Assembly (NCBI GenBank): GCA_947449005.1
Contig: CANFPP010000001.1
Coordinates: 8,442-72,441 of the forward strand
From: Holosporales bacterium
GTDB taxonomy: Bacteria; Pseudomonadota; Alphaproteobacteria; Paracaedibacterales; CANFPP01
Length of the DNA: 64,000 nt
Reading direction: 5' to 3'
Made by a program: the position numbers and the translations under genes. The notes under the pieces were generated by a model, which had not been told where the DNA came from, did no database searches, and was given only the letters and a program-made list of their open reading frames with translations. Positions 3,871-36,500 of this stretch are shown here, in pieces. Each line of letters starts with the position of its first letter. Positions within the stretch are counted from its first letter, which is position 1.

Positions 3871-3940
3871 TTCTGAAACAATCCCCCTTTTGCACCAGCT
3901 GTCAGTTTTTGTCTCTGAAGGTGTAAAAGGGGATTCAGAA
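3871..3940. terminator. Long hairpin between convergent genes (possible bidirectional terminator)
   Basis: TTCTGAA-aca-ATCCCCCTTTTGCACC ... GGTGTAAAAGGGGAT-TCAGAA. Confidence 0.5.
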
Positions 3941-3980
3941 CTTTTGAAGACCCCTCAATAAATCATCAAGAGAAATTTCT

Positions 3981-4385: not shown

Positions 4386-4483
4386 TCGGACCTCCTATTT
4401 TTCAGATAAGCATACTTTTTTATACTGAAATGTTGTAGGTATTGCTATAGTGCATTAAAGAAATAAATCAGGATAGAGAGAGC

Positions 4484-6519: not shown

Positions 6520-6539
6520 TCTTTTTTGGTGTAAAGTAA

Positions 6540-7934
6540 GTGACCATTTCCTCATCTTTTACTGTAGCTCTTGTCGGGCGTCCAAATGTTGGGAAATCAA
6601 CACTTTTTAACCGATTAACTAAAAAATGTTTAGCCTTGGTGCACGAAACCCCCGGGCTAACGCGTGATCGCCGTGAAGGCGACGCGGAGCTTTACGGCCT
6701 TAACTTTACGGTTATTGATACACCTGGTTTGATTGATCCCGATACAACCTCTGCAGCGCCAGAACTGGCAGAAGGCATGAAAGAACAGACGTTGGCTGCA
6801 ATTAGGCAAGCAAATGTTGTTGTGTTTGTGGTTGATGGCAGAGAAGGCTGTACGCCTTATGACACTGATTTGGCTAATCTTTTGCGCAAACAAAAAAAGC
6901 CACTCATTGTTGTTGCCAACAAGTGTGAAGGAAAGCATGGATACCATGGTATTGCGGATGCTCTCGCGTTAGGCCTTGGAGATGTCACGGCTATTTCTGC
7001 TGAGCATGGCGAAGGCTTAGTTGATCTTCACGAGATGCTGATTGCTCATCTTCCAGAAAGCTTAAAAAAAGCTATGCAAGAAGAAGATGATGAAGATAAA
7101 GCATGGGATCGGCCATTGCATTTGGCAATTATGGGCCGTCCGAATGTTGGAAAATCAAGCATAATCAATAAAATACTTGGTGAAGAGAGACAATTAACGG
7201 CAGACATGCCTGGCGTCACGCGTGACTCTATTACAATCAAATGGGAATATGAAGGACGGCAGTTTAATCTTGTTGATACGGCAGGAATTCGTCGTCAAAG
7301 CCGTGTTGATAAACGAGATTTAGAGAAACTTGCGGTTATGGATGCTGAGCGGACTCTGAAGTATGCCGAAGTTGTCGTTTTGGTTGTTGATGGAACTGTG
7401 CCACTTAGTCAACAATTTGAAAAGCAAGATTTAAGCCTAGCAAGTGACGTCATTAAAGAAGGACGCGGCTTGATTATCGCCGTTAATAAATGGGATCTCG
7501 TTAAAGAAAAAACAGCTCTTTTGAAACACTTACAGCAAGAACTTGATTTGCATTTAACGCAGGCTAAGGGTGTGACTTGCCTTCCTATTTCAGCTGAGAC
7601 AGGATTTAATTTACCAAAACTTCTTGATGAAGTTTTAAGAGTTGAAAGAACCTGGAATAAAAGGCTGACGACGGGCGAGTTAAACCGTTGGTTGGAATAT
7701 ACAGTTACTGCTCATCCACCACCAATCTCGTGCGGTAGACGCATTCGTATTAAATATATTACGCAGATAAAAAGTCGACCGCCGACTTTCATTGCTTTTT
7801 GCTCAAAATCAGCCGATGTGCCGGATTCTTATCGCCGTTATTTGATTAATAATTTGCGTCAAGATTTCAAGCTGCCGGGCATTCCGATTCGCCTTACTTT
7901 CCGTAGCAGTGAAAATCCTTATAAGAAGAAGTAG
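6540..7934 (+). CDS. der: GTPase Der (EngA), double G-domain
   Basis: GTG start. Two P-loops GRPNVGKS (aa 13 and about 199), DTPG/DTAG and NKCE/NKWD motifs, KH-like C-terminus. Confidence 0.95.
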   Translation: MTISSSFTVALVGRPNVGKSTLFNRLTKKCLALVHETPGLTRDRREGDAELYGLNFTVIDTPGLIDPDTTSAAPELAEGMKEQTLAAIRQANVVVFVVDGREGCTPYDTDLANLLRKQKKPLIVVANKCEGKHGYHGIADALALGLGDVTAISAEHGEGLVDLHEMLIAHLPESLKKAMQEEDDEDKAWDRPLHLAIMGRPNVGKSSIINKILGEERQLTADMPGVTRDSITIKWEYEGRQFNLVDTAGIRRQSRVDKRDLEKLAVMDAERTLKYAEVVVLVVDGTVPLSQQFEKQDLSLASDVIKEGRGLIIAVNKWDLVKEKTALLKHLQQELDLHLTQAKGVTCLPISAETGFNLPKLLDEVLRVERTWNKRLTTGELNRWLEYTVTAHPPPISCGRRIRIKYITQIKSRPPTFIAFCSKSADVPDSYRRYLINNLRQDFKLPGIPIRLTFRSSENPYKKK

Positions 7935-7974: not shown

Positions 7975-8063
7975 GAGGGCTACTTGTCATGACACTTGGT
8001 CAAAAAAAAACCCTCATTACATACATTTGGCTTATGTAATCAGAAATATTATCTTTATTATTC

Positions 8064-8092
8064 TTGAAATTAATTACATAAATTACTATATG
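8064..8092 (+). promoter_or_regulatory. Conserved promoter of the IQ/helical-repeat paralog family (copy 1)
   Basis: TTGAAA, 17-nt spacer, TATATG. The same architecture and flanks (ATCTTTATTATTCTTGAAATTA..., ...AATAAAAGAATAA before the ATG) recur at 11780-11808 and 15244-15272. Confidence 0.5.
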
Positions 8093-8131
8093 TGTAAAAT
8101 ACCCCAAATTAATTAAAGAATAACGTTCTTC

Positions 8132-9994
8132 ATGAAAAAATCTTCAGTAAAGCTAACTTTAACATTATTGATGCTGGGCTTAATGTGCACCAGTCTTAAT
8201 GCATCAACGTTATCTTCTGAGGAAGCTGCCACTATAATTCAAAGAAAAGTAAGGCTTTATTTTGATAGAAATATAGATAGAAAACTCAGTAAAATGGACG
8301 GTGAATTTTCTAAAGAAGAAATTGATATTACTGCTTTAAGTAAACTGGTGTGTGCTAGGCTTCTTTTCTTAGTATATCCTAGCATTCAAGATGGAAGCAG
8401 AGCTATCCGATTTTGCAAAAAAGGACTTTTAAATCATCCCGTCTTCAGATTTCTCGGCTTAGATTATTTGGCTACTATTTACAGTTCTAATTCAGTTCAT
8501 AAAAATTTACCAGAAGCGGCTGAATGCTACCTGGAGCTTGTGGAGTTGTATGCGGACCAGCCATTAGAGCAACTCAAAGTATTAGTAGCGTTATTGAATC
8601 TTTATAAAACTGAAGGTGATGATGATCAAACAAAAACAAAGAGCATTATTCAAAGAATTGTAGAAATGCAAATCAGTGATTCGACTGAATATTTAGAAGC
8701 TCTTCAATCATCGTCTCAACTTTTAACTGATGGAAGCGATAAAATTAAAGACATCGGAAGAGCAATACAAATTCAAGAAAGACTTCGTGAACACAGCGAA
8801 TACAAGTTATCAAGTTTGCAAAAACTATCTAGTATTTACGAACATAATCCGGATCATAAAAATCCAGAAAAATTGGTTGAATGCTACCTTGAGTTTATGG
8901 AGTTGTATGCGGACCAGCCATTAGAGCAACTCAAAGTATTAGTGAGTTTATTGAAACTCTATAACACTGAAGGAGAGACATTTAATCCAGAAGAAGCGAA
9001 TAATATTGTTCAAAGAATATTAGAAATGCAAGCTCACGAAGGACTTCGTGGAAATAATGAGTTCAAGCTACCAAGCTTACAACAATTATCTTATATTTAT
9101 GAACATGATCCGGTTCATAAGAATCCAGAAAAATTAGCTGAATGCTACCTGGAGCTTGTGGAGTTGTATGCGGGCCAGCCGTTAGAACAACTAAACATAT
9201 TAGCGCGTTTATTGAAGCTCTATATAGCTGAAGAAGCGGCATTTAATACTGAAGAAGCAAAGGCTAGAGCTCATATAATCTTGATAGATTTCGCTGCAGA
9301 TCCGACTCCATCTTTGAAAGCGCAGGTTGCCTTATCAGACTTATATTTCCTTCATTCAGACCTTTCAACACCTGAAGAAATAATACGTATAAATACGAAA
9401 ATTGTTGAGAGAGCCTCAGAATTAGAAGCGGGATCATCGGATTTGATTAATGCTCATCGACGTTTAATAGAAGTCTATAAAGCACAGCAAGATATTGAAG
9501 CAGAAAGAACAACATACCTGAGTTTATTCAATTATTGTGAAAATGCCTCTATAGCGACTGAGTGTTATCATGAGCTTGTAAAGGCAGACCAACCGTTAAT
9601 GAAACTCAATATATTAGCGCGTTTATTGAAGATTTATATAGCTAAAGAAGCGGCATTTAATACTGAAGAAGAAAAAACGACGGCTCAAGGTTTTTTGAAT
9701 TCTTTAACTGTAGATCCGACTGCATATTTGGAAACGCAGGTTGCTTTATCAGATTTATATTACCTTCATCCAGACCTTTCAACTTCTGAAGAGATAATTC
9801 GTATAAATACAGAGATTAACCGCCATGAGGAGTTAAAAGCAGGATCACAAGCCGTGATTAATGCACATAAACGTCTAATAATGGCCCATAATAAAAAAAT
9901 ACAAAAAATATACATAAGTCTGATCAAACGTTGCGGATCAGATAATAGGGCTCCTATTCTTCAAGAATACAATAAGTTCATTAAAAACAAATAA
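8132..9994 (+). CDS. Secreted IQ-motif / alpha-helical (TPR-like) repeat protein, paralog 1 (620 aa)
   Basis: Signal peptide ...LMLGLMCTSLNA/S. IQ-like IIQRKVRLYFDR at 8237-8269. Repeated module of about 120 aa (AECYLELVELYADQPLEQLKVLV.LL.LY.TEG...). C-terminal cap is shared with paralog 4. Confidence 0.8.
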   Translation: MKKSSVKLTLTLLMLGLMCTSLNASTLSSEEAATIIQRKVRLYFDRNIDRKLSKMDGEFSKEEIDITALSKLVCARLLFLVYPSIQDGSRAIRFCKKGLLNHPVFRFLGLDYLATIYSSNSVHKNLPEAAECYLELVELYADQPLEQLKVLVALLNLYKTEGDDDQTKTKSIIQRIVEMQISDSTEYLEALQSSSQLLTDGSDKIKDIGRAIQIQERLREHSEYKLSSLQKLSSIYEHNPDHKNPEKLVECYLEFMELYADQPLEQLKVLVSLLKLYNTEGETFNPEEANNIVQRILEMQAHEGLRGNNEFKLPSLQQLSYIYEHDPVHKNPEKLAECYLELVELYAGQPLEQLNILARLLKLYIAEEAAFNTEEAKARAHIILIDFAADPTPSLKAQVALSDLYFLHSDLSTPEEIIRINTKIVERASELEAGSSDLINAHRRLIEVYKAQQDIEAERTTYLSLFNYCENASIATECYHELVKADQPLMKLNILARLLKIYIAKEAAFNTEEEKTTAQGFLNSLTVDPTAYLETQVALSDLYYLHPDLSTSEEIIRINTEINRHEELKAGSQAVINAHKRLIMAHNKKIQKIYISLIKRCGSDNRAPILQEYNKFIKNK

Positions 9995-10017
9995 ATAACA
10001 CAGTGTGCAAGCTTTAG

Positions 10018-10163
10018 TAAGAGAACAGTCTGGATCCCCGCCTGCGCGAGGATGACAGGGGGGGGGAAAACGAGCGGAATTCACTCGCACAATTTTTATT
10101 GCTTTCCTCATAATCTTCGCTCTCTCCATCGTCATGCTCGCGAGGGCGGAGATCCAGGTTGTT
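10018..10163. mobile_element. MITE-like palindromic element, family A (full copy)
   Basis: Hairpin-containing terminal inverted repeats AACAGTCTGGATCCCCGCCTGCGCGAGGATGAC ... GTCATGCTCGCGAGGGCGGAGATCCAGGTTGTT. The internal part is homologous to the copy at 30008-30192. No coding capacity. Confidence 0.75.
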
Positions 10164-10324
10164 TATGGTTGAGCAGTTAAAAATGATTTCCTAGAAATCT
10201 TCACACTTTATTGAGTAAAGTTTTATTATTATTAGTGATAACTTTAAGATTGAATTTTCCATTTCTGTTTAATACATTGAATTTCCACCCTTATAAAGGG
10301 TTATTATTATTGAAAGAGAAATGA

Positions 10325-11506
10325 ATGTTTATTAAAAATACTACAATAAAATTAGCTTCAACATTCCTAACACTTAGCTTAATGTGCACATGTCTTCATG
10401 CAGCAGAATTTACTGAAGAGCACCGAGATACAGCCGCTGTTAAAATTCAAAGGCATTATAGAGGTGAAAAAGTCAGGAAACTATTTCAAGAGATTGACAC
10501 AGAAGCAGAGATCATAGCTCAAAATATGCAACAAAATCCTAACTTGGCCAAAGTAGCTTTCACTACTCATATAAAATCATTAGGAGAAAACAGCACTATT
10601 AATGATATTTTGACAGCAGAAGTGTGGTGCCAAATTGCTAGAGATCTAGCGCCAGAAAATGTAGAAGTATTTAACACTTACCTTGAGACATTGAGGATTT
10701 GTGAAGACCCAATTAAACGACAGATTGCCTCACTCATAAAAAGTTTGACCATTCAAAATATAGATAAGAAAAAAGAAGTGCTCCGGGAAATAGAAACTTC
10801 CAATTATCCTGTTTTTAAAAACGCTTACTATGGAATATTGGCTAGAGCTCTTAGGGATTCCAAAGATATAGATCAAGCTCAAGAATATCTAATGAGATTA
10901 TTGGAATTACCTAAGCAGTATCACGTCAGAGCATATAAAAACCTAGCAGATCTTAATACTTCAGATGCTGAGCGAAAATTTTATTTAAGAAGGATTATTA
11001 AAATTGGCAGACCTGAACAAGCAGTAGCAGAAGCCAAATCTGACCTTGAACAAATGGCAAAAAAAAGCCTTGAGCTTGCTGATTCATATGATAATGGATC
11101 CGACTCCAATTTTTACAACCCACAAGAAGCTTTAAGAATATACAGATCCCTTTTAGAGGACCCACAAACACTAAATACCGATGATATTAATTTTCGTATA
11201 GCTTCTATCTTGACTTCTGGTCCAGCTGACGTACAAGACAAAAGTAAAGCCATAGAAATTTATAAGGCAATTCGAAATCGAGAAGGTAATAAAGGTTCTA
11301 GCTATTATTGGAGTGCTGCATACTATCTTATAGATAACTATATAGGTCAAAATCAATATTCTGAAGCACTTGGTCTAGTAACAGAAGATTTAAATGATCC
11401 AGAATGGCAATTTAGTGAGGAATTAAAAACGATTTATCAAAATGGATCAGACGAAATTCGTGAGGCCATTGATAGTTCTGAGGCTTTAAGAAGTAAGCTT
11501 CCCTAG
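10325..11506 (+). CDS. Secreted IQ-motif protein, paralog 2 (393 aa; N-domain-only version)
   Basis: Signal peptide ...LSLMCTCLHA/A. Canonical IQ motif IQRHYRGEKVRKLF (10445-10486). The N-domain is homologous to the N-terminal 330-350 aa of paralogs 3 and 4 (DPIKRQIASLI, SNYPVFKNAYY, FYNPQEALRIYRSLL). Confidence 0.8.
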   Translation: MFIKNTTIKLASTFLTLSLMCTCLHAAEFTEEHRDTAAVKIQRHYRGEKVRKLFQEIDTEAEIIAQNMQQNPNLAKVAFTTHIKSLGENSTINDILTAEVWCQIARDLAPENVEVFNTYLETLRICEDPIKRQIASLIKSLTIQNIDKKKEVLREIETSNYPVFKNAYYGILARALRDSKDIDQAQEYLMRLLELPKQYHVRAYKNLADLNTSDAERKFYLRRIIKIGRPEQAVAEAKSDLEQMAKKSLELADSYDNGSDSNFYNPQEALRIYRSLLEDPQTLNTDDINFRIASILTSGPADVQDKSKAIEIYKAIRNREGNKGSSYYWSAAYYLIDNYIGQNQYSEALGLVTEDLNDPEWQFSEELKTIYQNGSDEIREAIDSSEALRSKLP

Positions 11507-11590
11507 CCAACAGGTGATAGAGGAATCGAATATGGATCAGATAGCGACTAGAGAAACGATACGGATCTACTGATATTTATTCATTCTCTG

Positions 11591-11682
11591 TCGTCATTCC
11601 AGCAAAAGCGGAAATCCACATAAAACACGGATTGCATTAACCTAATTAAGAAACCTGAATCCCCGCCTCCGCGGGGATCACG
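11591..11682. repeat. Two family-A hairpin arms in outward orientation
   Basis: CGTCATTCCAGCAAAAGCGGAAATCCA (11591-11617) and CCTGAATCCCCGCCTCCGCGGGGATCAC (11653-11680). Confidence 0.6.
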
Positions 11683-11779
11683 GTTAAATCCACCATATTT
11701 GCGGGATTGATCTTAAAGCCCTTCATTACGTTATATATATTTAATTTATGTAACGTATGGGAGGTTATCTTTATTATTC

Positions 11780-11808
11780 TTGAAATTATTAATACAAATA
11801 CATATATG
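11780..11808 (+). promoter_or_regulatory. Conserved promoter of the IQ/helical-repeat family (copy 2)
   Basis: TTGAAA, 17-nt spacer, TATATG. Flanks are shared with 8064-8092. Confidence 0.5.
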
Positions 11809-11845
11809 TGTAAAATATCTAAAATTAATAAAAGAATAATATCCT

Positions 11846-14800
11846 ATGAAAATGTCTATAGTCAAAACAACGTCAACGGTATTAATGCTGAGCTTAATAG
11901 GCACCAGCGTTCATGCAGCAACTACATATTTTGATGAAAAGACTACTATTAAGATTCAAAGACTTTATCGTGATAGAAAACTCAACCAAACTTTTGAAAC
12001 GTTAAACCAAACATCAAAAAATATAAAGAGAGGTGTTGTTCCTGCACCTACTGAAGCAGATTTAGAAGAAAGCATCGCATCTTTAAACGAACACAGTGAT
12101 TTTAAAAGCATGGGATTGCCTGCTGTATACTTCATCAACGCAAAGAAGGATTTAGATATCAGACCTTTTATAGAACGTTATCAAGGATATATTCAAAGTC
12201 AAATGGCAAGTCGCGATCCAATCAGGAGACAGATAGCCTCCCTTATCATGGCGGAGCTTGCAACTAAAGCTGCTGCAGAAAATGATAAATTCAATACAGC
12301 GCAGTATTTTTTGCAAGAAGCTATAAGTTCTGACTATCCATTTTTTAAACACAATGCTTATCTACAATTATCTGGGTTGGCTAGAGATTATGCGGATAAA
12401 AACCAAGCCATTAACTGTTTAAGAAAAGGACTAATTTTACCCAACAGATATCATGCTAGCATTTACAGGAAGTTAGCTTACGTTGTTGATTCTGAAGAGT
12501 ACAAACCTTCGCGGGAACGCTACTTGAAGCAGATTATTGAAATTGGAACTCCGACAGAGAAAATAAAAGCACTCATGAGTCTTGCTTATTTGTATGGTCG
12601 CAATCAATCGAATTCAGCATTTTACAGACCAAGCGAAGCTCTAGATATTTATGATTCTCTTTTAGCTAATCCACAGCTGATTTCTTTTTTAGACACAGAT
12701 AATGTTCACATACAAATTGCAATTATTCGTGCGTTTTCTCCTGATGAAGAAATAAAAAACGTAGATAGAGCAGTAGAGATTTTAGATGGTATTCTTTTAA
12801 ATAGACCTAATGACTGGAATTATTCAAATGCTGCAACCCAACTGATAAGTATTTTTATTACAAAAGATCCCGCTAGAGCTTTTAGCTTAGCACGAGAAGC
12901 TTTAAGCAATCCAAATCTTCAACAACCCTTCAAAATATACATAGAAAAAGCATTAGCGGATTTATATAGACATGGTCCGGAAGGAATTAAAAACCCTCAA
13001 GCAGCTTTGCAAATCTTAGAAAATCTAGCGGCTATGACTTTTGGCCCAACTTTTGCTCCCGATTATCATTCAATTGTGCTTTTGTCGCTGACTCATCATT
13101 TGGTGTATGGAGATGCTACAGTTAAAAACGCAGCAAGAGCAATACAGATTCACGAAGAACTTCGTAAAGACAGTAAAGTGAAGCTGGCAGCTTTAATCGA
13201 CTTAGCTCATATTTATCAACATGATGCAGAGCATAAAAATCTATTAAAAGCAATTGAATACTTTGAAGAAATTTTGCTATTGCACGAGGGTAAACCGGTA
13301 GAACAATTCAACACTTTAATCCGTTTATTATCTCTCTATACGACTGAAGGAGAGACACTTAATCTGGAAAAAGCACAAATTATCCAGCAAAGAATTTCAG
13401 AAATGCAACCTATTATTGAATCCAATAATTCGAAGGAAAGTTTCGTGGCCCTTCAAAGCCTGGCTAGTCTTTTGACATTTGGAAACGATAGAGTTAAAGA
13501 CAGAGGAAGAGCAATACAAATCCTCGAAGAACTTTCTAAACACAGAGAATCTAAACTATTAAGCTTACCGATCTTAGTTTATATTTACGAGCATATTGCA
13601 GAGCATAAAAATCCAGTAAAAGTGACTGAATGCCTTAATAAGCTTGTAGAGTTGTATGCTGACAAACCATTAGAGCAACTAAAAGCATTAACAAAATTAT
13701 TGAAGATTTATACAACTGAAGGAACAGCGTTTAGCATTGAAGAAGCGAAGGCTGCTGTTCAAAGAATTTTGACTCATTCCGCTGTCGACGGTACAGCACG
13801 TTTGGAAGTACAAGTTGCTTTATCAAAGCTTTTTCATCTACATCCTGAATCAGGCTCAACCGCAGAAATAATTGATGTAAATAATGAGCTGGCACATAAC
13901 CCTATGGCAACTCCATCGGATGTGGGAGATGCTCATCGTCGTTTGATAGCAGCTTACTTGACACAACGGAGTTTTGAACAAGTTGTTACAACATATGAGC
14001 ATTTTTTAACACGTGCTGTAGATTGGCAACGTACTGGTGTTATCCTAGATTTTATCTCCTTTCTTGAAAATCCAGATCATGCAACTGTACAAAACCCTGC
14101 ACGTGTGACTGAGCTTCGAGCGCTTCTCCCGCAACCTGCAGTATTTATGACAGAAGAACTTGTGCAGTTACCTGGTATTGTTGCTGGATTTGGTGGAGCG
14201 GGTCACGTTGATCCTTATTTTTCACCAGAGATGATTGCAAATAGAAAAGCATCACTGCTTGCATTAAGTGGAGATCATTTTGACCAAGTGAACTATCAAA
14301 CAAACTTAGAAAGAACGATAGCTGAAGTTAAAGAAGCCATTGCACAATATGGTGCACGTGACGCTGAATTTGCTGCTACAGCCGTCGTAGCTACTGAGGT
14401 TTTTGAAACAGGGAATACTCATCCTTATAGCTATCGTCCTACTGTTCAAGATCTTGATTATCAATTTTCCATTGATGATTTGGGCAGGGAGATGGCATAT
14501 GGAGAAGCTTTGGTTCGTATCTGGGCACGCATTACTCACCATCCTGATGTAAATCATTTAAAGGATTTAATAGTGTTGCAACTTGCAGCAGCGATTGATC
14601 CTGATGGCCACATTGTCTGTCCCGTTGGAAAAATAATGCGTCATTTCCAAGCAATGGAAGGTACTTTTCCTGACGTTCGTGCTGTGACATTATCGTTGGA
14701 GAATGCTTTTTCAGGTTTTGCAAAAAATGAGCAAAAACTCATTGATGCACTACCAGGAGAGCATCCTTTAAAAATCCTCGAATCCAAAATTGGAGAAATA

Positions 14801-15037
14801 AGAAAGGCAGCAGAATATAAAGTAAATACTGATACTTGGGTTAGTCCAGAGTACCAAGGAAAATTTGAATTCTTATCGAGCGATGATCAAATCTTGCTAA
14901 AGAATCATTACGAGCAGATGGTTTTGAAATTTGAACAAGATTTATTGAAATCAAGAGATACGCTTTCTGAAACTGAGAAGGCATTTGCGAGGAGAGAAGT
15001 TGGTGAATATCTGAGTGTGACTTGGTTTGTGGGATAG
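11846..15037 (+). CDS. Secreted IQ-motif / helical-repeat protein, paralog 3 (1,063 aa), with a unique C-terminal domain of about 360 aa
   Basis: Signal peptide ...LMLSLIGTSVHA/A. IQ-like IQRLYRDRKLNQTF (11954-11995). Family N-domain plus repeat modules. From about aa 700 (nt about 13943) the sequence is non-repetitive and is absent from the other three paralogs. Confidence 0.8.
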   Translation: MKMSIVKTTSTVLMLSLIGTSVHAATTYFDEKTTIKIQRLYRDRKLNQTFETLNQTSKNIKRGVVPAPTEADLEESIASLNEHSDFKSMGLPAVYFINAKKDLDIRPFIERYQGYIQSQMASRDPIRRQIASLIMAELATKAAAENDKFNTAQYFLQEAISSDYPFFKHNAYLQLSGLARDYADKNQAINCLRKGLILPNRYHASIYRKLAYVVDSEEYKPSRERYLKQIIEIGTPTEKIKALMSLAYLYGRNQSNSAFYRPSEALDIYDSLLANPQLISFLDTDNVHIQIAIIRAFSPDEEIKNVDRAVEILDGILLNRPNDWNYSNAATQLISIFITKDPARAFSLAREALSNPNLQQPFKIYIEKALADLYRHGPEGIKNPQAALQILENLAAMTFGPTFAPDYHSIVLLSLTHHLVYGDATVKNAARAIQIHEELRKDSKVKLAALIDLAHIYQHDAEHKNLLKAIEYFEEILLLHEGKPVEQFNTLIRLLSLYTTEGETLNLEKAQIIQQRISEMQPIIESNNSKESFVALQSLASLLTFGNDRVKDRGRAIQILEELSKHRESKLLSLPILVYIYEHIAEHKNPVKVTECLNKLVELYADKPLEQLKALTKLLKIYTTEGTAFSIEEAKAAVQRILTHSAVDGTARLEVQVALSKLFHLHPESGSTAEIIDVNNELAHNPMATPSDVGDAHRRLIAAYLTQRSFEQVVTTYEHFLTRAVDWQRTGVILDFISFLENPDHATVQNPARVTELRALLPQPAVFMTEELVQLPGIVAGFGGAGHVDPYFSPEMIANRKASLLALSGDHFDQVNYQTNLERTIAEVKEAIAQYGARDAEFAATAVVATEVFETGNTHPYSYRPTVQDLDYQFSIDDLGREMAYGEALVRIWARITHHPDVNHLKDLIVLQLAAAIDPDGHIVCPVGKIMRHFQAMEGTFPDVRAVTLSLENAFSGFAKNEQKLIDALPGEHPLKILESKIGEIRKAAEYKVNTDTWVSPEYQGKFEFLSSDDQILLKNHYEQMVLKFEQDLLKSRDTLSETEKAFARREVGEYLSVTWFVG

Positions 15038-15243
15038 AGATTTACCATTCGTCATTTTTTCAAACATCATCTTGATTGTTGTCTCCCCTCTCTCTGACAT
15101 TCTCACGAGGTGGGGGGATAGAGGGTAGAGATGTGAAAAACAACACTCTCCTTAGCGTGCCCCCAAGATTATCCTGGAGACCTCCCCCACACTGAATTGA
15201 ATGATTAAATAGAATAGAGGGTAAGATTATTACAGTTTCATCC

Positions 15244-15272
15244 TTGAAATCATTTTCACAAGTAATTATATA
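15244..15272 (+). promoter_or_regulatory. Conserved promoter of the IQ/helical-repeat family (copy 3)
   Basis: TTGAAA, 17-nt spacer, TATATA. Followed by ...CTAATAAAAGAATAATATCCCTATG, as in copy 2. Confidence 0.5.
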
Positions 15273-15311
15273 TGTAGAATATTCCAGCCCTAATAAAAGA
15301 ATAATATCCCT

Positions 15312-18300
15312 ATGAAGAAACCTATAATCAAAATCACGTCAACGGTATTAATGCTAAGTTTAATGAGCACTGCTCTTAATGCAGCAACGTCATTTATTAG
15401 GGATGAGGAGAGAGAAGCTGCGGCTTCTAAAATTCAGGTATTTTATTGGGACAAGAAACTACGTAGCTTAGCGGATGAATTATCTACAGAAGCACAGGAG
15501 ATGGGGAAAAGAACTGCGGGTAATCTAGCGTTGATTGCAGAAGAAATGCAAAAAAACATAGATTCGTTAAATAACTCCAATCGTTTTACAAGTACCGCCA
15601 TGCTTATGGGTATATTGCTTTCTAACCTAGAAGGTCTAGATACAGCACCTCTTTTGCAAAAATATCAAGCCTATCTTGAAAGACAAATAGCGAATGGAAG
15701 CTCCATCCAGAAACAACAAGCTTCTCTTATGAAAGTAATTATTAAAAACAAGAAGAGTAATAAAGAGGCTGAATTAAACGAGATGAGAGAGTTATTACAA
15801 GAAACAATGAATTCTCCTTACCCCGTTTTTCGGCTCTATGCTTATCATCTGCTCTTTGATGCGGCTAAAGACTCGGGAGATAAAGAAGCAGCTCTTCACT
15901 ATTTATATAAAGGAATGTTGTCATCTAAAAGAAATCACGCTCGTATTTATGAGGAATTAGCTGATTTTGACAATTCAGAAGATTATAAGCCTAAGAAGGA
16001 ACGCTATTTAAAGAAAATTATTAAAATTGGCACCCCAAAAGAAAAAGCGGAAGCACTCACTAAGCTTATTGTTTTATACGCCAATCAAAACTCAGCATTT
16101 TACAGACCGAGTGATGCTCTAAAACACTATCAAGATCTTATAAGTGATCCACAACTTGTTCGTTTTCTAGGTACAGATAATGATATTCATATACGGATTG
16201 CATGTCTCTTTGCATTTTCTCCTGATGAAACAGTAAAAAACGTAGAGAAAGCAATAGAGACTTTAGACGACATACTGTCAAAAGAACCTAATCACTGGAA
16301 TTATTCATATGCTACAAGTAGTTTGATAAGTATTTACGTTTCAAAAGATCCTGCTAGAGCGCTTAGATTAGCATTAGAAGCTCGAGAAAACCCAAATCTT
16401 CCAGAACCTTTCAAAACCTATATAGAAAGATCATTAGCAGATTTATATAGGGATGGTCCGGAAGGAATTAAAGACCCTCAAGCAGCTTTGCAAATTTTAG
16501 AAAATCTAGCGGCTATGACTTTTGGCCCAGTTTTTGCTTCCGATTATCATTCAAATGTGCTTTTGTCGCTGACTCATCTTTTGGTGTACGGAGATGCTAC
16601 AGTTAAAAACGCAGCAAGAGCAATACAGATTCACGAAGAACATCGCGAGAACGAGGCATTGAAGTCACGAAGACTGGCGGATTTAGCGTATATTTACAAT
16701 TATGATGCAGTTCATAAAAGTCCAGTGAAATTGGCTGAATGCTACCTGGAGCTTATAGAGTTCTATGCGGACCAGCCGTTAGAGAAACTCAAAGTTTTAG
16801 TAAATCTATTGAATCTCTATGACACTGAAGGAGAGACATTTAATCCAGAAGAAGCGAATAGTATTGTTCGAAGAATTTTAGAAATCCAAAGTGGTGATTC
16901 AGTGGAAGCTTTGGAAGCTCTTCAATCATGGGGTCAGCTTTTGACACAGGGGACTATTGTCGTTAAAAACATAGAAAGAACCATTCAATTTTACGAAAGG
17001 GTTCGTAGGCAGAGTGAGTTTAAATTATCAAGCTTACAAAAATTATCTTATATTTACGAACATGATTCAGTTCATAAAAATCCAGTAAAATTAGCCGAAT
17101 GCTATCTGGAACTTATAGAGTTCTATGCAGACCAGCCGTTAGAGAAGCTCAAAGTTTTAGTAAATCTATTGAATCTCTATGACACTGAAGGAGAGACATT
17201 TAATCCAGAAGAAGCGAATAGTATTGTTCGAAGAATTTTAGAAATCCAAAGTGGTGATTCAGTGGAATCCCTAGAAGCTCTTCGAGGATTAATTCAGCTT
17301 TTAGCAGACGGAACTATTGCAGTTAGAAGTGTAGAAAGAAATATTCAGCTTTACGAAGGGCTTCTTGAAAATAGTGAATTCAGGGCATTAAGTTTGAAAA
17401 AGCTTTCTAATATTTACACCACTGATCCAGTCCATAGAAATCGATCAAGAGCACTTGAATATTATCTAGAGCTTGTAGAGCTGTATGCAGATCAACAGAT
17501 AGAGCAACTCAAAGTTTTAGAGAATTTATTAGGTCTCTATGAAACTGAAGGTGATGATGATCAGGAAAAAACGAAGAGTATCATTGAAAATATTTTAGGA
17601 ATGCAATCTAGGAATTCGGTTGAATATCTAGAAACTCTTCAAAGACTTGTTCACAGTTTGATGTATGGAAACGCTAAAATTAGAGATATCGGAAAAGCAA
17701 TACAAATCCTAGAAGAGCTTTGTACGCACACCAATTTCAAAATATTAAATTTAAAGAAATTATCTAGTATTTACGAGTATTATCCTATCCACAGAAATCT
17801 ATCAAAAGCACTTGAATGCCAATTAGAGCTTGTGGAGTTGTATGCAGACCAACCGGTAGAGCAGCTTAAAGTTTTAGTAAACCTATTGAATCTCTATGAC
17901 ACTGAAGGAGAGACATTTAATCAAATCGAAGCGGATAATATTGTTCAAAAAATTATACAAATGCAAACTGGTGATTCAGTGGAAGCTTTGGAAGCTCTTC
18001 AATCATGGGGTCAGCTTTTGACACAGAGTACTATTGTCGTTAAAAATACAGAAAGAACCATTCAATTTTACGAAAGGGTTCGTAGGCAGAGTGAATTTAA
18101 ATTATCAAGCTTACAAAAATTATCTTATATTTACGAACATGATTCAGTTCATAAAAATCCAGTAAAATTAGCCGAATGCTATCTGGAACTTATAGAGTTG
18201 TATGCGGACCGCCGACTAGAACAATTGGATATCTTGGCGCGTTTATTGAAGCTCTATATAGCTGAAGGTATGACATTTAATACTGAAGAAACAAAGGCTA

Positions 18301-19121
18301 ACGCTCACAGAATTTTGACAGATTTACCTGCAGAGCCGGCTCCACTTTTAAATGTGAAAATTGCTTTATCAAACTTATATTACCTTTATCCTGACCTTTC
18401 AACACCTGAGGACATAACCAGTATAAATACGGAAATTCTTAGTCGGTCTTCAGAATTGGAAGCAAACTCATCGGACTTAATTAATGCCCATAAAAGTCTA
18501 ATAGAAAACTATCACAGACAAGGAAATGTTGAAGAAGAAAAAACAACATATCTACGTCTATTCAACAGTTGTGAAAATATTTCTATACTGACTGAATGTT
18601 ATCAACAACTTATAATATTATATGCAGATCAACCCTTAGAGCAACTCAACGTATTAGCACGCTTATTAAAGAGGTATATAACTGGAGAAACGACGTTTAA
18701 TACTGAAGAAGAAAAAGCAAGAGCTCAAGAAATCTTGACCGGTTTGTCTACAGATCAAAATGTTTTAGCCGCGGACCCGACCGCATCTTTGAAAGTACAG
18801 ATTGCTTTATCGGACTTATATTATCTTCATCCTGATCTTTCAACAATTGAGGAAATAACGAGTATAAACACAGAAATAAGTCGTTGTGAAGAATTAGAAC
18901 GAGGATCAGCAGAAGTAATTAATGCTCACCAACGTTTAATAAATATTTACAAAGCACAGCAAGACTTTGTAGCTGTTCGAAAAACATACATAAGTCTCCT
19001 CAAACGCAGTAGAGGAGATAATCAAGCCTCGGCTCTTGCAGAATACAACACCTTCATTAGGGAAAATCTTACGTTAAAAAGCACACTTACAACATCTACA
19101 GAACAGAATTTGGTCTCTTGA
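15312..19121 (+). CDS. Secreted IQ-motif / helical-repeat protein, paralog 4 (1,269 aa)
   Basis: Signal peptide ...LMLSLMSTALNA/A. IQ-like IQVFYWDKKLRSLA (15432-15473). Family N-domain, then roughly six or seven copies of the 120-aa module, two with near-identical DNA. C-terminal cap is homologous to paralog 1. Confidence 0.85.
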   Translation: MKKPIIKITSTVLMLSLMSTALNAATSFIRDEEREAAASKIQVFYWDKKLRSLADELSTEAQEMGKRTAGNLALIAEEMQKNIDSLNNSNRFTSTAMLMGILLSNLEGLDTAPLLQKYQAYLERQIANGSSIQKQQASLMKVIIKNKKSNKEAELNEMRELLQETMNSPYPVFRLYAYHLLFDAAKDSGDKEAALHYLYKGMLSSKRNHARIYEELADFDNSEDYKPKKERYLKKIIKIGTPKEKAEALTKLIVLYANQNSAFYRPSDALKHYQDLISDPQLVRFLGTDNDIHIRIACLFAFSPDETVKNVEKAIETLDDILSKEPNHWNYSYATSSLISIYVSKDPARALRLALEARENPNLPEPFKTYIERSLADLYRDGPEGIKDPQAALQILENLAAMTFGPVFASDYHSNVLLSLTHLLVYGDATVKNAARAIQIHEEHRENEALKSRRLADLAYIYNYDAVHKSPVKLAECYLELIEFYADQPLEKLKVLVNLLNLYDTEGETFNPEEANSIVRRILEIQSGDSVEALEALQSWGQLLTQGTIVVKNIERTIQFYERVRRQSEFKLSSLQKLSYIYEHDSVHKNPVKLAECYLELIEFYADQPLEKLKVLVNLLNLYDTEGETFNPEEANSIVRRILEIQSGDSVESLEALRGLIQLLADGTIAVRSVERNIQLYEGLLENSEFRALSLKKLSNIYTTDPVHRNRSRALEYYLELVELYADQQIEQLKVLENLLGLYETEGDDDQEKTKSIIENILGMQSRNSVEYLETLQRLVHSLMYGNAKIRDIGKAIQILEELCTHTNFKILNLKKLSSIYEYYPIHRNLSKALECQLELVELYADQPVEQLKVLVNLLNLYDTEGETFNQIEADNIVQKIIQMQTGDSVEALEALQSWGQLLTQSTIVVKNTERTIQFYERVRRQSEFKLSSLQKLSYIYEHDSVHKNPVKLAECYLELIELYADRRLEQLDILARLLKLYIAEGMTFNTEETKANAHRILTDLPAEPAPLLNVKIALSNLYYLYPDLSTPEDITSINTEILSRSSELEANSSDLINAHKSLIENYHRQGNVEEEKTTYLRLFNSCENISILTECYQQLIILYADQPLEQLNVLARLLKRYITGETTFNTEEEKARAQEILTGLSTDQNVLAADPTASLKVQIALSDLYYLHPDLSTIEEITSINTEISRCEELERGSAEVINAHQRLINIYKAQQDFVAVRKTYISLLKRSRGDNQASALAEYNTFIRENLTLKSTLTTSTEQNLVS
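16716..18198 (+). repeat. Intragenic 360-bp (120-aa) module repeats with near-identical stretches
   Basis: 16789-16908 is identical by eye to 17149-17268. 16894-17121 is nearly identical to 17971-18198. Confidence 0.8.
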
Positions 19122-30596: not shown

Positions 30597-33500
30597 ATGT
30601 TTAAATATTTTTTATTCAACAGATCTTTAATATTGCTTTCAACTGTCTCTGTAGCTGCTCTCTACACTTCAGATGCGGCTGCTGCTATGCCTGCAAACGA
30701 ACCTCCGAAATGGTATCCTGAAGCGCATGTAGACCTGAAGCAGGGAACTAAACGCGGAATCGCGCAGGTTGGAACCATAACTCCTCTTGCCCAAAACGCT
30801 ACATCTCTTGCTTATCTTGATTTGCGTTTGATGTCTGACACAAACAAAGCAAAAGAAGGAAACTTTGGTGCGGGTGGAAGATGGCTAAAAGATGGTCGTT
30901 ATATCCTGGGAATGTATGCCTTTTATGATAGACGCTATACAGAGCTTAATAACGTTGTTAATCAGGTAACTGTTGGCTCTGAAATAATGAGTGATACCTG
31001 GGATTATCGCGTAAACGTGTATGTCCCTGAGAATCTTTCAAAAACAATAGTTAAAGAAACTAAGCCAGAACAGAAGACCACCTTTGCTGGTTATACCGAA
31101 ATTCAAAAAAGCACCCAATATTTAGTAAAAGAAGTTCCCCTAAGAGGTTTAGACCTTGAAATTGGGAGAGTCATCCCAGGATTCCCTGCCCTTAGAGTCT
31201 ATGGAGCTTATTATCATTTCCAAGGACGTGATGGTGTCGAGTCTGTAATTGGTGGACGTGTCCGAGCAAATCTAAAATTAAACAAATTTTTCTCATTCGA
31301 AACAGAAGTAAGTCGCGATAACGTCAGAAAAGAAGTTGCCTTCATTGGTATGAGACTGACGATTCCGCTTAGCAAAAATGGCTATAAACCATCAACACTA
31401 ACATCGCTTGAACAACGCATGGTCGAACAGCCAATGCGAGATATTGACGCTGTTACAAATACACAGAACAATACCCAAGTCAAAAAAGACGTGATTAAAG
31501 ATAATTTGCGCCACGTAAATGAAAAAGATGATCCCCTTGCCGATGGTAGCGCTGAACATCCATATCACATAGACAAAACAGATCATCTTGTAGAGTTAGG
31601 CGAGTCAAATGAAGGCGGAGGAACTCCAGAAACTATCGTATGGCAGAATGGAGTTTTAATAAGACGCGCAGACACCACAGATTTTCTTCATGAAAAATTT
31701 GGAACTTCAATAGAAACTGCTTTAGCACTTGGAAAGTTCAAGAAAATCCTAAACAGGATACGCCTCAACAAAGAGATTGAAGCGCGTAGACTGCAAGAAG
31801 TCAAATTTGCTAAAGAAGCAGCAGAACACGAAGCGTCAACAAAAACAAAAGCAGGCAGTTTTTATGAAGCTGCAAAAGCAGCAAAAGCTGCAAAGGATTT
31901 TGCTGAAGAAGAAGAGAAATTAAAATTTGAAAAAACAAAATACGAACACTTTGAAGCACAAGTAGACTTAGAAGCGGCAAAAGAAGCAACGCGAAAAGCA
32001 GCTAAAGATGCGGAACACAAGCAACAAGCTCAGGCAGAAGCAGCCGCTAAACATTGGAAAGAAACCACTAAGAAGAACCGTTTAGAGAAAGAAAGATTAG
32101 CTAGAGAGCAGGAAGAAGCTAGACACGTTAAAGAAGAAGATGAAGCAAGGCTCGCGGCGTTAAGAAAAGAATTTGCTGATGCTCAAAAAATTAAAGAAGC
32201 CGAACAAAAAGCAAGAGATTCTGCAGCAGCTGAACAAAGACTAAAAGATGAAGAAGCACAAAGAAAACTTGTTGAAGCTGCTCAAAAATTAAAAGCAGAA
32301 CAAGACGCTGAAAATATTAGACGTGCTAATGAAGCTGAAAGAATAAGACTTAAAAAAGAAGCTGATGCCCTTCAACTCGAAAAAGAAAAAGAAGTAGAAG
32401 CTCGCCGTCAAGAAATGATTCGTCGAGCAAAGAAAATTGCTGACGAAGAAGCACGAAGAGTTGAGCTGAAGAGAATCGCTGACAAACTTATTGAAGACGC
32501 GCGCATCGCTAAGGAAATCGAAGATAAGAGAATCGCTGATAAACTCATCGAAGATGCTCGTATCGCTAAGGAAATCGAAGACAAGAGAATCGCTGATAAA
32601 CTCATCGAAGATGCTCGTATCGCTAAGGAAATCGAAGACAAGAGAATCGCTGATAAACTCATCGAAGACGCACGCATCGCCAAGGAAATCGAAGATAAGA
32701 GAATCGCTGATAAACTCATCGAAGACGCCCGCATCGCCAAGGAAATCGAAGACAAGAGAATCGCTGATAAACTCATCGAAGATGCTCGTATCGCTAAGGA
32801 AATCGAAGACAAGAGAATCGCTGATAAACTCATCGAAGATGCTCGTATCGCTAAGGAAATCGAAGATAAGAGAATCGCTGACAAACTCATCGAAGATGCT
32901 CGTATCGCTAAGGAAATCGAAGACAAGAGAATCGCTGACAAACTCATCGAAGACGCTCGTATCGCTAAGGAAATCGAAGAAAAGAGAATCGCTGATAAAC
33001 TCATCGAAGACGCACGCATCGCCAAGGAAATCGAAGAAAAGAGAATCGCTGATAAACTCATCGAAGATGCTCGTATCGCCAAGGAAATCGAAGACAAGAG
33101 AATTGCTGATAAACTCATCGAAGATGCTCGTATCGCTAAGGAAATCGAAGATAAGAGAATCGCTGATAAACTCATCGAAGATGCTCGTATCGCTAAAGAA
33201 ATCGAAGATAAGAGAATCGCTGATAAACTCATCGAAGACGCACGCATCGCCAAGGAAATCGAAGAAAAGAGAATCGCTGATAAACTCATCGAAGACGCAC
33301 GCATCGCCAAGGAAATCGAAGATAAGAGAATCGCTGATAAACTCATCGAAGATGCTCGTATCGCTAAAGAAATCGAAGATAAGAGAATCGCTGATAAACT
33401 CATCGAAGACGCCCGCATCGCCAAGGAAATCGAAGATAAGAGAATCGCTGATAAACTCATCGAAGATGCTCGTATCGCTAAGGAAATCGAAGATAAGAGA

Positions 33501-36500
33501 ATCGCTGACAAACTCATCGAAGACGCTCGTATCGCTAAAGAAATCGAAGATAAGAGAATCGCTGATAAACTCATCGAAGATGCTCGTATCGCTAAGGAAA
33601 TAGAAGACAAGAGAATCGCTGATAAACTCATCGAAGATGCTCGTATCGCTAAAGAAATCGCTTCTAAAAAAACAATCGTCGATAACTTCAGATCTTTCAC
33701 TAAAGTTAAAAAAGCTAAAGCTAAACTTGCTGAGCTTAAAACGGCTGAAGTGTTAAGACTTGAAAACGTCAGAATTGAAAAAGAAACCGCAATTAATGCT
33801 CTAAAAGACAAAGTCCTTCAAGATGCTATCGCCGCAAATCTCCTTCATGAAGCTGACGAAGAGCGTAGAACTCAAATAGATCTGCAAGTCAAAGCTGAAA
33901 AAGCAAGACTCGTTGATCTCGAAGTGGCAGCCTTAGAACAACTAAGAGCAGATGAAGATAGACTCGCTAAACTTGATGCTCAAAATGAGAAAGAAACTGA
34001 ACTCGCTGAAATCGAAGATCAAAGGCTTAAAAACAAAAAACTCAAAAAAGCTGCTCAATTAGAGAGAAGAGCACAAAGAAGAGATGCTGCTGAAGCACAA
34101 AAACTCTCTCAAGAGCAAGCAAGAGAAGAACTTGAAAGAAATAATCTCGAAATTCAAGAAACACAACAAAAACAAACTGAGAAACTTAATACAGCTAAAA
34201 CAACTGTAGCTCAAAAATTACAAGATCTCATTAAAGTTAAAAAAGCCAGAAAACAACTTCAAACAGCTCGTGACGCAGCGACAACGATTCAATCCGCTTG
34301 GAGAATGAAGTCTGATCAATCTGCTTTCAGTGATCTCAAAGATGCGGTTAAAACCCTGCAAAACAAACAGAGAATGAGCTCAGCTAAAGCGGAACTTGCT
34401 AAACTTAAAGACACTAAACTCAAAGCTGACTCAGCCACAACCATCCAATCCGCTTGGAGAATGAAGTCAGACAAAACCGCTTTCAGCGATCTTAAAGATG
34501 CGGTTACAACCCTGCAAAATAAACAGAGATTGAGTACAGCTAAAGCAGATCTGAAAGCTAAGCGCGCAGAAGAGCAACAAGCATTTTTAGATTCTCTGCT
34601 CGGTGATGAAGAAACAAATACACCAGTAAGCGAAAGTCAGAGAAGACTTAGCGCTAGTCGTTCTGTAGACAAAGCAAACTTCGTTAATACCAGAAGAGGA
34701 AACAATCCCTCGATGAACTATGATGGTTCACCAATAACAAGGGGAGCAACTTTTGAAACTTTTGATTTTGGCACCGAGGATTTTGGCTATGATGGTACTT
34801 TTGGTGACGATATTGAAGGAGAAAGAGATTTTTCAGATAAGGGCACACCTAGAGATTTAAGTGATGATGAGATGTATGTAGGAGCATTACATCACGATGA
34901 TATCTACAGTGCGCCTGGTAACGAAGAATTTGCAGTTCCAAACATAATGAAAAAAGACGGTTCTAAAGAAGGTGCTGCAGAAGCTGAGATTAAAGGCACT
35001 CGCAGCGAAAAAGAAAAAACTGCTGTAGGAACGCGACGCAATTCGGTACCAGCAACACCTACTCAAGGTAAAAAGAAATTGCAAGTACGCCGTAAATCAG
35101 ATTCAACAACAATTGAGCAGCCAAGAGAACAACAAGCATCAACACCTAACACCTCAGGACAGGTTAGTGCGATGAAGAGCAAGTTGTTTGGGCCGAAATC
35201 AGTACGCAAATCTAAAGTGACTGGTAAAGACGAGGCAGCAATGTTTAAAGCTACATTGCCAGATCTTTCTACTATGGGAAGTCGTATCGCAGGAATCGAA
35301 AAATTGCCACTTGTGGACCGTCGTGCCGCGCTCACTAGACTTACTAATGAAATACACCGAGCTGAAGAAGTATTAGCCGTTGAGATAGAAACCCGGGCTT
35401 TTGAAAAGTCACTTCCTGCTGAACGAGCAGAGCTCGCTAAATTAAAAAGTGAAATCGAGAATCTGGAGAGAATAGCAAATGCAGAGGAACGCCGAGCTCT
35501 ATCTGCCGATATCCATAAAAGACTTGATGCAAAAGCAAAAGCAGTAGAGGGAACTGTAAAACGCAGAGAGAGTTTGGGTGCTCCTGCTGTTTCAAGTACC
35601 TCTATTGCTCAAAGTGCTAAACTTGCGGCTCAAACTTCTTCCGCGGAAGCGTCAATTTTTAGCCCAGGCACAGTAAAAGCAGCAGAAGATCTTGATAGAG
35701 CGGCAAAGCTCTATGATCTATCGTTGCAAGCTTATGAAGAGGCTCAACGTGTTGACGGTGAAGATCATGGAAGTCTACCGGCAGAAGGTCCTGTTACATC
35801 AAAATCATTACAGAGAGCAAAGAAAAGACTTCCACAGAATCGATTCACAAGCCCAGATGGTATTGTATTAAGCGATGCACCAACGCCAGATATGGATACC
35901 CCAAACCTCGATGATTTAACCCCTACCCCTGTTCACCAACAAAATGTTCAGAAGAGAAGAGAGTCAATAATCGGCAAAGGCTCAGCTTTAAAAGAAGCTC
36001 ATCAGGTGTTGCATCCTCAACAAGCTCCGGCGTTAAGCCTAAATGAAGAACTTGAGTTGGAAGAAGAACATTTAGAACAAGAAATTGCTGCACCTACTTC
36101 TAGGGCGAGACAACAAACACCTAGAAAACCACAGCATATTGAGGTTCGAAAAAGTATGCTCTCTCCTGATAGTCAGTTTTCTGGGCAAGTTGATGGTAGT
36201 TCAAGTGAGTCTGCTGATGAGAATGATGAATCTGGAATATTTGACCAAGGAGTGGATGATTCATTCACAAGCCCAGGTTCACTCGCAAGTCCGACTGAGG
36301 ATGTCAGATTTGGCGCCAAAGCAAGAGCTGGGTTAGCGAAAAGAAAAACATTATTTGGCCAACCTAAAACCCCAGGTCAGCACGGACAACAAGCTTCTAA
36401 TTCAGATGATGTGTACAACTATTCTCTAGGTAGTCCTGATTTTGTGATTGAAGGAACGCCCGTAAAATCAGTAGATTTTTCCGATAGCCCAAAGGTTGAA

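Follow-up and report, generated by a model that had tools for sequence, protein, structure and literature searches.

Does a bacterium from a lineage of protist endosymbionts export proteins that begin with a eukaryote-type IQ motif, and could such a motif be offered to a calmodulin-like protein of the host? The question is raised by a stretch of 64,000 nucleotides (nt) from a Holosporales bacterium (NCBI GenBank assembly GCA_947449005.1, contig CANFPP010000001.1, positions 8,442 to 72,441 of the forward strand), hereafter called the window, in which four paralogous open reading frames (ORFs) follow one another. A preliminary description of this DNA had placed an IQ motif at the mature N-terminus of all four proteins, and had named a Pfam IQ scan as a check; that scan passes paralog 2 only. 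A fairer wording is that the locus holds one complete IQ motif together with a family-wide, degenerate IQ-like helix, both derived from a single cassette. Hijacking of host calmodulin by these proteins is plausible but unproven, since only one copy is statistically solid as an IQ motif.

The four paralogs are tandem ORFs of the + strand, each with a Sec-type signal peptide, an acidic linker and a segment of the form AAxKIQxxYR[D/G]xK[L/V]. Lengths are in amino acids (aa).

8132..9994, + strand: paralog 1, ORF of 620 aa; signal peptide (aa 1-24), IQ-like segment, C-terminal helical repeats of ~120 aa
10325..11506, + strand: paralog 2, ORF of 393 aa; signal peptide (aa 1-26), long helix (aa 31-70) with the IQ motif, alpha-solenoid N-domain
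11846..15037, + strand: paralog 3, ORF of 1063 aa; signal peptide, IQ-like segment, N-domain, helical repeats, conserved C-terminal domain
15312..19121, + strand: paralog 4, ORF of 1269 aa; chimera of a paralog 3-like N-domain and paralog 1-like repeats

Within these ORFs the segments in question are as follows; HMM stands for hidden Markov model.

8237..8269, + strand: IQ-like segment of paralog 1, IQRKVRLYFDR; a variant with a three-residue insertion that matches the relaxed pattern; Pfam IQ 13.0 bits, E value 0.096
10433..10489, + strand: complete IQ motif of paralog 2, TAAVKIQRHYRGEKVRKLF (aa 37-55), found by Pfam PF00612, by our own IQ HMMs and by phmmer against the PDB
From 10445 (I41), + strand: IQ core of paralog 2, IQRHYRGEKVRKLF, matching the strict consensus
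11954..11995, + strand: IQ-like segment of paralog 3, IQRLYRDRKLNQTF; no Pfam IQ match; I1, Q2, Y5, R6 and F14 kept, with D7 and N11
15432..15473, + strand: IQ-like segment of paralog 4, IQVFYWDKKLRSLA; no Pfam IQ match; W6, A14 and a net charge of only +1

The case for paralog 2 is made by several scores. The gathering cut-off of the Pfam IQ family (PF00612) is 20.3 bits, and paralog 2 reaches 22.6 bits as a whole protein and 26.1 bits when its N-terminal 70 residues are scored, aa 37-55 being aligned to model positions 3-21. It also fits the strict consensus [FILV]Qxxx[RK]Gxxx[RK]xx[FILVWY], including a pair of alanines at positions -4/-3 and an aromatic residue at position 5, and the perfect agreement with the canonical motif that had been claimed for it is thereby borne out. 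The background, drawn from the window and from 46 loci of related metagenome-assembled genomes (MAGs), comprised 1,234 non-family ORFs; in its 283,231 aa the strict consensus has no match, and the minimal form, IQxxxR, occurs 0.10 times per 1000 residues. When two HMMs built from bona fide IQ repeats were applied to 1,246 ORFs, paralog 2 ranked first with ~21 bits and all others stayed at or below ~7 bits. Finally, when all PDB chains were searched by phmmer with the 44 aa of its mature N-terminus, IQ repeats were returned, those of Chlamydomonas radial spoke protein 23 (E 8.7e-4), a CDC48-subfamily ATPase, SPATA17 and CFAP91. The IQ motif of paralog 2 is clearly more than a chance resemblance; those of paralogs 1, 3 and 4 are not individually significant, and paralogs 3 and 4 give no Pfam IQ match even at E <= 10. 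The minimal IQxxxR is present in 7 of the 13 distinct family N-termini compared, and the complete consensus in paralog 2 only. The net charges of the four segments (+4, +4, +3 and +1) and their helical hydrophobic moments (0.01-0.25) fall within the range of 429 canonical IQ motifs (+4.4 +/- 1.2 and 0.03-0.24, respectively). As we read it, the segment would be a short linear motif of the IQ type, with paralog 2 holding the complete form and the others an IQxxxR form or a weaker one.

In every paralog the segment stands close behind a signal peptide. By inspection, the N-termini follow the pattern of a Sec substrate of signal peptidase I (SPase I), with a basic n-region (MKKxxxK), a 15-17-residue h-region (LTSTVLMLSLMxTSL), small residues at -3/-1 and no lipobox, the pattern ending in [LV]-[NH]-A before A/S. 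The likely SPase I site is [LV]-x-A, which occupies residues 24-26 in paralog 2 and 22-24 in the others, and cleavage there would leave the motif 12, 15, 13 and 17 residues from the new N-terminus in paralogs 1 to 4, a spacing that agrees with the one given in the preliminary description. The motif starts given there are exact as well (I36 of paralog 1 at nt 8237, I41 of paralog 2 at 10445, I37 of paralog 3 at 11954, I41 of paralog 4 at 15432), and its A-x-x-[IK]-IQ pattern holds for paralogs 1, 2 and 4 and fails in paralog 3, which reads TTIKIQ. A lipoprotein reading of the 'LMC' found in paralogs 1 and 2 was rejected: the cysteine is not conserved and there is no lipobox of the form [LVI][ASTVI][GAS]C.

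How far the likeness extends beyond paralog 2 is best seen from a profile search. A 64-position profile made from the N-termini of the four window paralogs was run with hmmsearch against 1.84 billion representative proteins (E <= 1e-3) and matched 64 proteins. Eight of these are family members with the whole signal-peptide-plus-IQ module (P0001, P0006, P0007, P0010, P0011, P0016, P0017 and P0038); the other 56 are matched only over positions ~27-60, in 2-18 separate stretches, and all ten of them that were scanned are multi-IQ proteins by Pfam (105-426 bits). Because the profile retrieves just the family and multi-IQ proteins, the segment behind the signal peptide resembles only IQ repeats, and for the same reason the resemblance is family-wide, albeit weak outside paralog 2. 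With profiles lacking the paralog 2 group, 46 of the 56 proteins still score above reversed and shuffled decoys (median 19 bits), these targets having been preselected by a profile that contained paralogs 1, 3 and 4.

The same search bears on an alternative that had been offered from the start, a targeting signal. In a fuller form, signal peptide and post-cleavage segment together would make up an export or sorting signal, read after Sec by a step peculiar to the lineage, such as a secretion system of type II-like kind, targeting to the outer membrane or to vesicles, or a chaperone of the periplasm; the likeness to IQ would then be incidental. Consistent with such a signal, the signal peptide is unusually conserved among the paralogs (50-62% identity), though these share only 24-33% identity overall, and the module was found at the N-terminus every time and in this family every time. 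A general tag would be expected on unrelated cargo, however, and none of the 1.84e9 representatives carried the module on an unrelated protein, which argues against a general sorting tag; recent duplication of the 5′ end, or its gene conversion, explains the conservation of the signal peptide equally well, as the upstream DNA is shared too; and we know of no secretion signal of this sequence. We regard a sorting role as improbable.

That shared DNA reaches beyond the coding sequence. The 5′ ends of the paralogs, including the signal peptide and the promoter-proximal region, can be aligned at the DNA level, and upstream of the genes a common block is found:

7982..8131, + strand: region upstream of paralog 1, holding a block shared with the region upstream of paralog 3 (11696-11845) and, more weakly, with that upstream of paralog 4 (15162-15311)

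The block, of ~70 nt (…TTATCTTTATTATTCTTGAAATTAATTACATAAATTACTATATGTGTAAAATA…), is nearly identical between paralogs 1 and 3 and weaker in paralog 4, and suggests a duplicated promoter and co-regulation; a scan of the cluster for promoter and terminator consensus sequences (sigma-70 consensus) found no excess over shuffled expectation. The 5′ end is a single cassette inherited by all members, in which the signal peptide is followed by a short acidic linker and then by a basic helix of ~20 residues; in paralogs 1, 3 and 4 of the window, promoter-proximal DNA is shared as well. The four occurrences of IQ count as one event, because they are homologous copies of this one cassette.

Behind the cassette the genes have been reshuffled. 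Paralog 4 is 50% identical to paralog 3 over aa 1-664 and 57% identical to paralog 1 over aa 664-1250, has a 360-bp (120-aa) unit repeated 4.2 times in tandem at 16689-18214 (71% identity), and is missing from L001 and L003, the syntenic contigs of close relatives. The Tgt proteins of these relatives are 96% identical to that of the window and their paralog 2 counterparts only 49-53%, and the family therefore evolves very fast; their paralog 3 counterparts are 75-79% identical. As a side observation, the paralog 3 counterpart of L003 (2328-5161) is split into ORFs of 158 and 816 aa by a frameshift near aa 126, and is either a pseudogene or an assembly error. Altogether, the cluster looks like a family of repeat proteins, exported by Sec and built as alpha-solenoids (TPR/Sel1-like), whose genes stand in tandem and recombine.

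A family with this history might carry the segment as a mere remnant of tandem duplication, recombination and gene conversion, with no function of its own. The chimeric architecture of paralog 4, a copy number that varies between close relatives, the DNA-level similarity of promoters and 5′ ends, and the relaxed conservation of the motif are all what such a remnant would leave. On the other side, IQ (or isoleucine followed by a polar residue) and the basic stretch persist in P0038 and in both genes of L049, which argues for retention across the clade and not only for recent conversion. We consider a functionless segment very improbable, slightly more so than a sorting signal.

Set side by side, the motif sequences of the family show both what has been kept and what has been lost.

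Paralog 2 of the window: IQRHYRGEKVRKLF
P0002: TQILYRDKKLKTLF
P0003: IQIPYRDKKLKKLF
Paralog 3 of the window, and P0010: IQRLYRDRKLNQ..
Paralog 3 of L001: IQRQGRLYRDRKL
Paralog 1 of the window: IQRKVRLYFDR
P0007, a paralog 1 copy in another sample: IQRKVMLYFDR (R6 replaced by M)
Second gene of L049: IQRMVRFKIDR
Paralog 4 of the window: IQVFYWDKKLR
P0038: IQRFYLDNKLR
P0011: ITKLFRLSVDRKL
P0016: ITRLIRLSVDKKL

The family consensus, AAxKIQxxYR[D/G]xK[L/V][R/K/N]xx[F], keeps a good part of the IQ motif (AA at -4/-3, I1, Q2, the aromatic residue at 5, R6, basic residues in the stretch 8-11 and, at 14, a hydrophobic one), and IQ itself persists in P0038, the most divergent member, which lies in a different genomic context. 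Several observations weigh against calling the family a family of IQ proteins. Of the 13 family N-termini to which Pfam was applied, among which the second gene of L049 is not included, only 1 reaches the IQ cut-off; two fall below it (the paralog 3 counterpart of L001 with 16.2 bits and paralog 1 with 13.0 bits), and ten have no match, including P0002, P0003, P0007, P0010, P0011, P0016 and P0038 at E <= 10, so that 8 of the 9 relatives from other samples have no Pfam IQ score. The glutamine is replaced by threonine in P0011 and P0016 (IQ to IT), the isoleucine by threonine once, in P0002, and R6 by W, L and M in paralog 4, P0038 and P0007, respectively. Even the syntenic counterparts of paralog 2, from the genomes with 96%-identical Tgt, read TQILYRD and IQIPYRD. 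Indels of three residues occur at two places within the motif core, the IQ segment is no better conserved among paralogs (29-43% identity) than the rest of the N-domain (33-48%), and the best-kept columns behind the IQ are D7-x-K9-L10, which lie outside the IQ consensus.

These points are the substance of another explanation, in which the segment is a family-specific N-terminal helix without an EF-hand partner. It might cap the solenoid structurally or be the solenoid's first helix, or else offer a contact to some partner in the bacterium; KIQ...D[RK]KL would be the conserved core, and paralog 2 would have drifted by chance to G7 and R11 and so come to look like a perfect IQ motif. The 12 N-termini that fail Pfam, the non-IQ character of the conserved D-x-K-L columns, the merely average conservation of the segment and the descent of the four copies from a single cassette are all as this account would have them. 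It fits less well with the profile-level likeness to IQ repeats, which survives removal of paralog 2; with features of that likeness beyond any simple pattern match, such as AA at -4/-3, the aromatic residue at 5 and the hydrophobic residue at 14; and with the return of nothing but IQ proteins and family members from an unbiased profile search. We treat such a family-specific helix as a distinct possibility, although on the whole a doubtful one.

Structure prediction speaks to both sides of this matter. An AlphaFold2 model of paralog 2, made from a six-sequence alignment (mean predicted local distance difference test, pLDDT, 80.5), is all-helical with 20 helices, of which a continuous helix covers aa 31-70 and 18 more follow; confidence is low over residues 1-27, as would fit a signal peptide. 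Inside the helix 31-70 lies the IQ core (aa 41-54), with pLDDT of ~56-79, and on this model the motif is situated at the free N-terminal end of a long helix that leads into an alpha-solenoid. The basic helix of the cassette is thus predicted to be the N-terminal part of a 40-residue helix, and this continuity with the solenoid is as expected of a structural helix. Residues 31-50, in turn, have pLDDT of 56-70, below that of the solenoid, which weakly suggests a stretch that is not packed and would count against a purely structural role. When the model is compared with the PDB by Foldseek, only generic matches to TPR, HEAT and Sel1 structures are listed, the Legionella protein LceB (8sxq) among them, with all E values above 1e-3 and TM (template modelling) scores of 0.3 or less. 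Repeat HMMs likewise remain below their Pfam cut-offs (TPR_19, 19.6 vs 25 bits; TPR_14, 19.0 vs 23.5; Sel1, 15.4 vs 30.7), paralog 1 has no Pfam family above cut-off, and no enzyme family, kinase-like ones included, was detected in Pfam or NCBIfam for any paralog.

Paralog 3 carries, in addition, a domain of its own.

14051..15034, + strand: C-terminal domain of paralog 3, ~330 aa, 56-77% identical across 5 members

This domain is far better conserved than the rest of the protein, and its invariant residues, which include GFG.AG, ETGN.H, DPDGHIVC and R.H, make an enzyme conceivable. Pfam, NCBIfam and a PDB profile search gave no match; a homologue search with the domain came back empty, although homologues exist, and its AlphaFold2 model (pLDDT 41) is unusable.

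A second kind of evidence comes from outside the family. At a distance of 11 kb from the paralog cluster lies a giant exported protein, unrelated to the paralogs, that has IQ motifs too.

30597..38021, + strand: giant coiled-coil protein, ORF of 2474 aa; signal-peptide-like N-terminus
34275..34319, + strand: IQ motif 1 of the giant protein, AATTIQSAWRMKSDQ (aa 1227-1241), found by Pfam IQ
34431..34475, + strand: IQ motif 2 of the giant protein, SATTIQSAWRMKSDK (aa 1279-1293), found by Pfam IQ

Together the two motifs score 25.8 bits with Pfam IQ in the whole protein and 33 bits in a fragment of 130 aa, in two stretches. The coiled coil contains 21 copies of a 19-residue repeat, corresponding to 20.9 tandem copies of the 57-bp unit KRIADKLIEDARIAKEIED (nt 32469-33660), and the C-terminus consists of acidic, Ser-rich repeats (37392-38018); these repeats explain a spike of AT skew at 32-36 kb. 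No homologues of its IQ region were found, and its N-terminal 330 aa, a possible beta-barrel anchor with a possibly barrel-like region at aa 60-260, have no match in Pfam, NCBIfam or the PDB. The occurrence, among ~55 genes, of two unrelated exported proteins whose IQ matches exceed the Pfam cut-off is far above any reasonable bacterial background and provides the strongest contextual argument for a role of the IQ likeness as such, and against the view of the paralog helix as a family peculiarity.

The lineage offers a setting for such a role. By Tgt, an Alphaproteobacteria MAG comes nearest (76%), then a Candidatus Paracaedibacteraceae MAG (74%), followed by Jidaibacter, Midichloriaceae and other endosymbiont-type MAGs; G+C content is 34-44%. 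The known Paracaedibacteraceae-like members are intracellular symbionts of protists. A relative, Ca. Bodocaedibacter vickermanii, lives free in the cytoplasm of its host, has a Sec pathway as well as a type VI secretion system; it encodes hundreds of lineage-specific proteins for which secretion is predicted (PMC8163844). The Paracaedibacteraceae-like lineage and the second IQ-bearing exported protein favour mimicry of a host motif.

The paralog family is restricted to a narrow clade of these Paracaedibacteraceae-like intracellular alphaproteobacteria, no homologues having been found outside it. A search of JGI metagenomes for more members returned only the L003 contig, and the Tgt neighbourhoods of 43 related MAGs contained none. 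The most divergent member, P0038, is found at 3914-6739 of locus L048 (NCBI GCA_040384245.1, contig JAWVHA010012285.1), alone between ruvB and ccmF. The number of this contig implies an assembly of at least ~12,000 contigs; GCA_040384245.1 may have been assembled from a host or a metagenome with the symbiont in it, and could reveal the host.

In the window, the cluster is preceded by BamB and Der and followed by a LuxR/LuxI pair, L28, a queuosine-precursor transporter and Tgt. Directly downstream lie a LuxR-type autoinducer-binding regulator (19363-20145, + strand) and an acyl-homoserine-lactone synthase (20106-20783, - strand), a pair that is kept in the syntenic contigs L001 and L003. Quorum sensing is unexpected in an apparent intracellular symbiont, and the pair may regulate the paralog cluster. 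A further ORF without annotation (25670-26380, - strand, 236 aa) encodes an Ala/Pro-rich protein with a signal peptide and an internal 294-bp repeat present 1.9 times.

Is an IQ motif in a bacterial protein without precedent? The preliminary description had called such motifs essentially a eukaryotic feature, a statement that stands only with a qualifier, since the Legionella protein SidJ binds calmodulin by an IQ helix (PMC6858067). This C-terminal helix, of the relaxed form IQxxxRxxRK, binds calmodulin at 89.6 nM without Ca2+ and thereby activates the enzyme (PMC6858067), and SidJ reaches the host as an effector of the Dot/Icm (type IV) system (PMC6858067, PMC8546864). Calmodulin hijacking of the IQ type by the bacterial effectors SidJ and SdjA is already known, and the paralogs resemble these two in being bacterial proteins with a relaxed IQ-type helix extending from a helical domain, the host-directed role being putative here. 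They differ from them in the position of the motif (N-terminal and behind a Sec signal peptide, whereas that of SidJ is C-terminal in a Dot/Icm effector), in the absence of sequence homology, and in having no detectable enzyme domain where SidJ has a kinase-like glutamylase domain. Compared with the IQ motifs of eukaryotes (myosin necks, neuromodulin/GAP-43, Sp17, radial spoke protein 23, SPATA17), paralog 2 agrees in its consensus and its Pfam score; in contrast to them, the paralog motif is bacterial, occurs in single copy directly behind a Sec signal peptide, has D in place of G at position 7 in nearly all family members, and varies in spacing.

Signal-peptide-bearing Sel1/TPR-like proteins are common in intracellular bacteria. 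Among those of Legionella, LceB, LpnE and EnhC resemble the paralogs in having a signal peptide at the N-terminus and, behind it, an all-helical solenoid of hairpins, which in paralog 2 is a prediction, and to our knowledge no IQ-like helix has been described for any of the three. Unlike these proteins, the paralogs have a repeat unit of ~120 aa, TPR and Sel1 scores below the cut-offs, and a distribution confined to a narrow clade. A search of the literature on IQ motifs in endosymbionts, or on PF00612 in bacteria, found nothing relevant. What is new is the combination, that is, a narrow-clade family with a Sec signal peptide and an IQ-like helix at the mature N-terminus in a Paracaedibacteraceae-like lineage.

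By analogy with SidJ, the paralogs may be IQ mimics, their exported N-terminal helix being bound by an EF-hand protein of the host; we put this forward tentatively, as the reading we prefer, whose chances come near to even but stay below it. The proteins would be exported by Sec and lose their signal peptide, and would then be released from a bacterium living inside its protist host. The exposed N-terminal helix could be gripped by apo-calmodulin, a calmodulin-like light chain or centrin, and the solenoid, in paralog 3 with its C-terminal domain, would be tethered or activated in a manner analogous to that of the SidJ IQ helix. Against this reading, a Sec signal peptide brings a protein only as far as the periplasm, and within the window no route onward to the host cytosol is seen.

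A broader proposal takes in the giant protein as well: IQ motifs may be a recurrent theme in the exported proteome of this protist endosymbiont, with the N-termini of the solenoid family and the pair in the stalk of the giant protein, taken as surface-borne or secreted, capturing calmodulin or calmodulin-like light chains of the host, either on the surface of the bacterium or in the cytosol. We think this rather unlikely, if worth stating, and such a theme might have arisen by acquisition of an IQ segment from the host. Were it true, IQ mimicry would have its first case beyond the effectors of Legionella, and its first that relies on Sec export rather than type IV secretion.

Should binding fail, the family would serve as a caution that one perfect pattern match within a set of paralogs does not make a motif. 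If, on the other hand, the helix does bind a host EF-hand protein, calmodulin hijacking would extend beyond SidJ and SdjA to poorly studied endosymbionts of protists and to a different export route, and a functional handle would be gained on an orphan, fast-evolving family of exported proteins and on the C-terminal domain of paralog 3.

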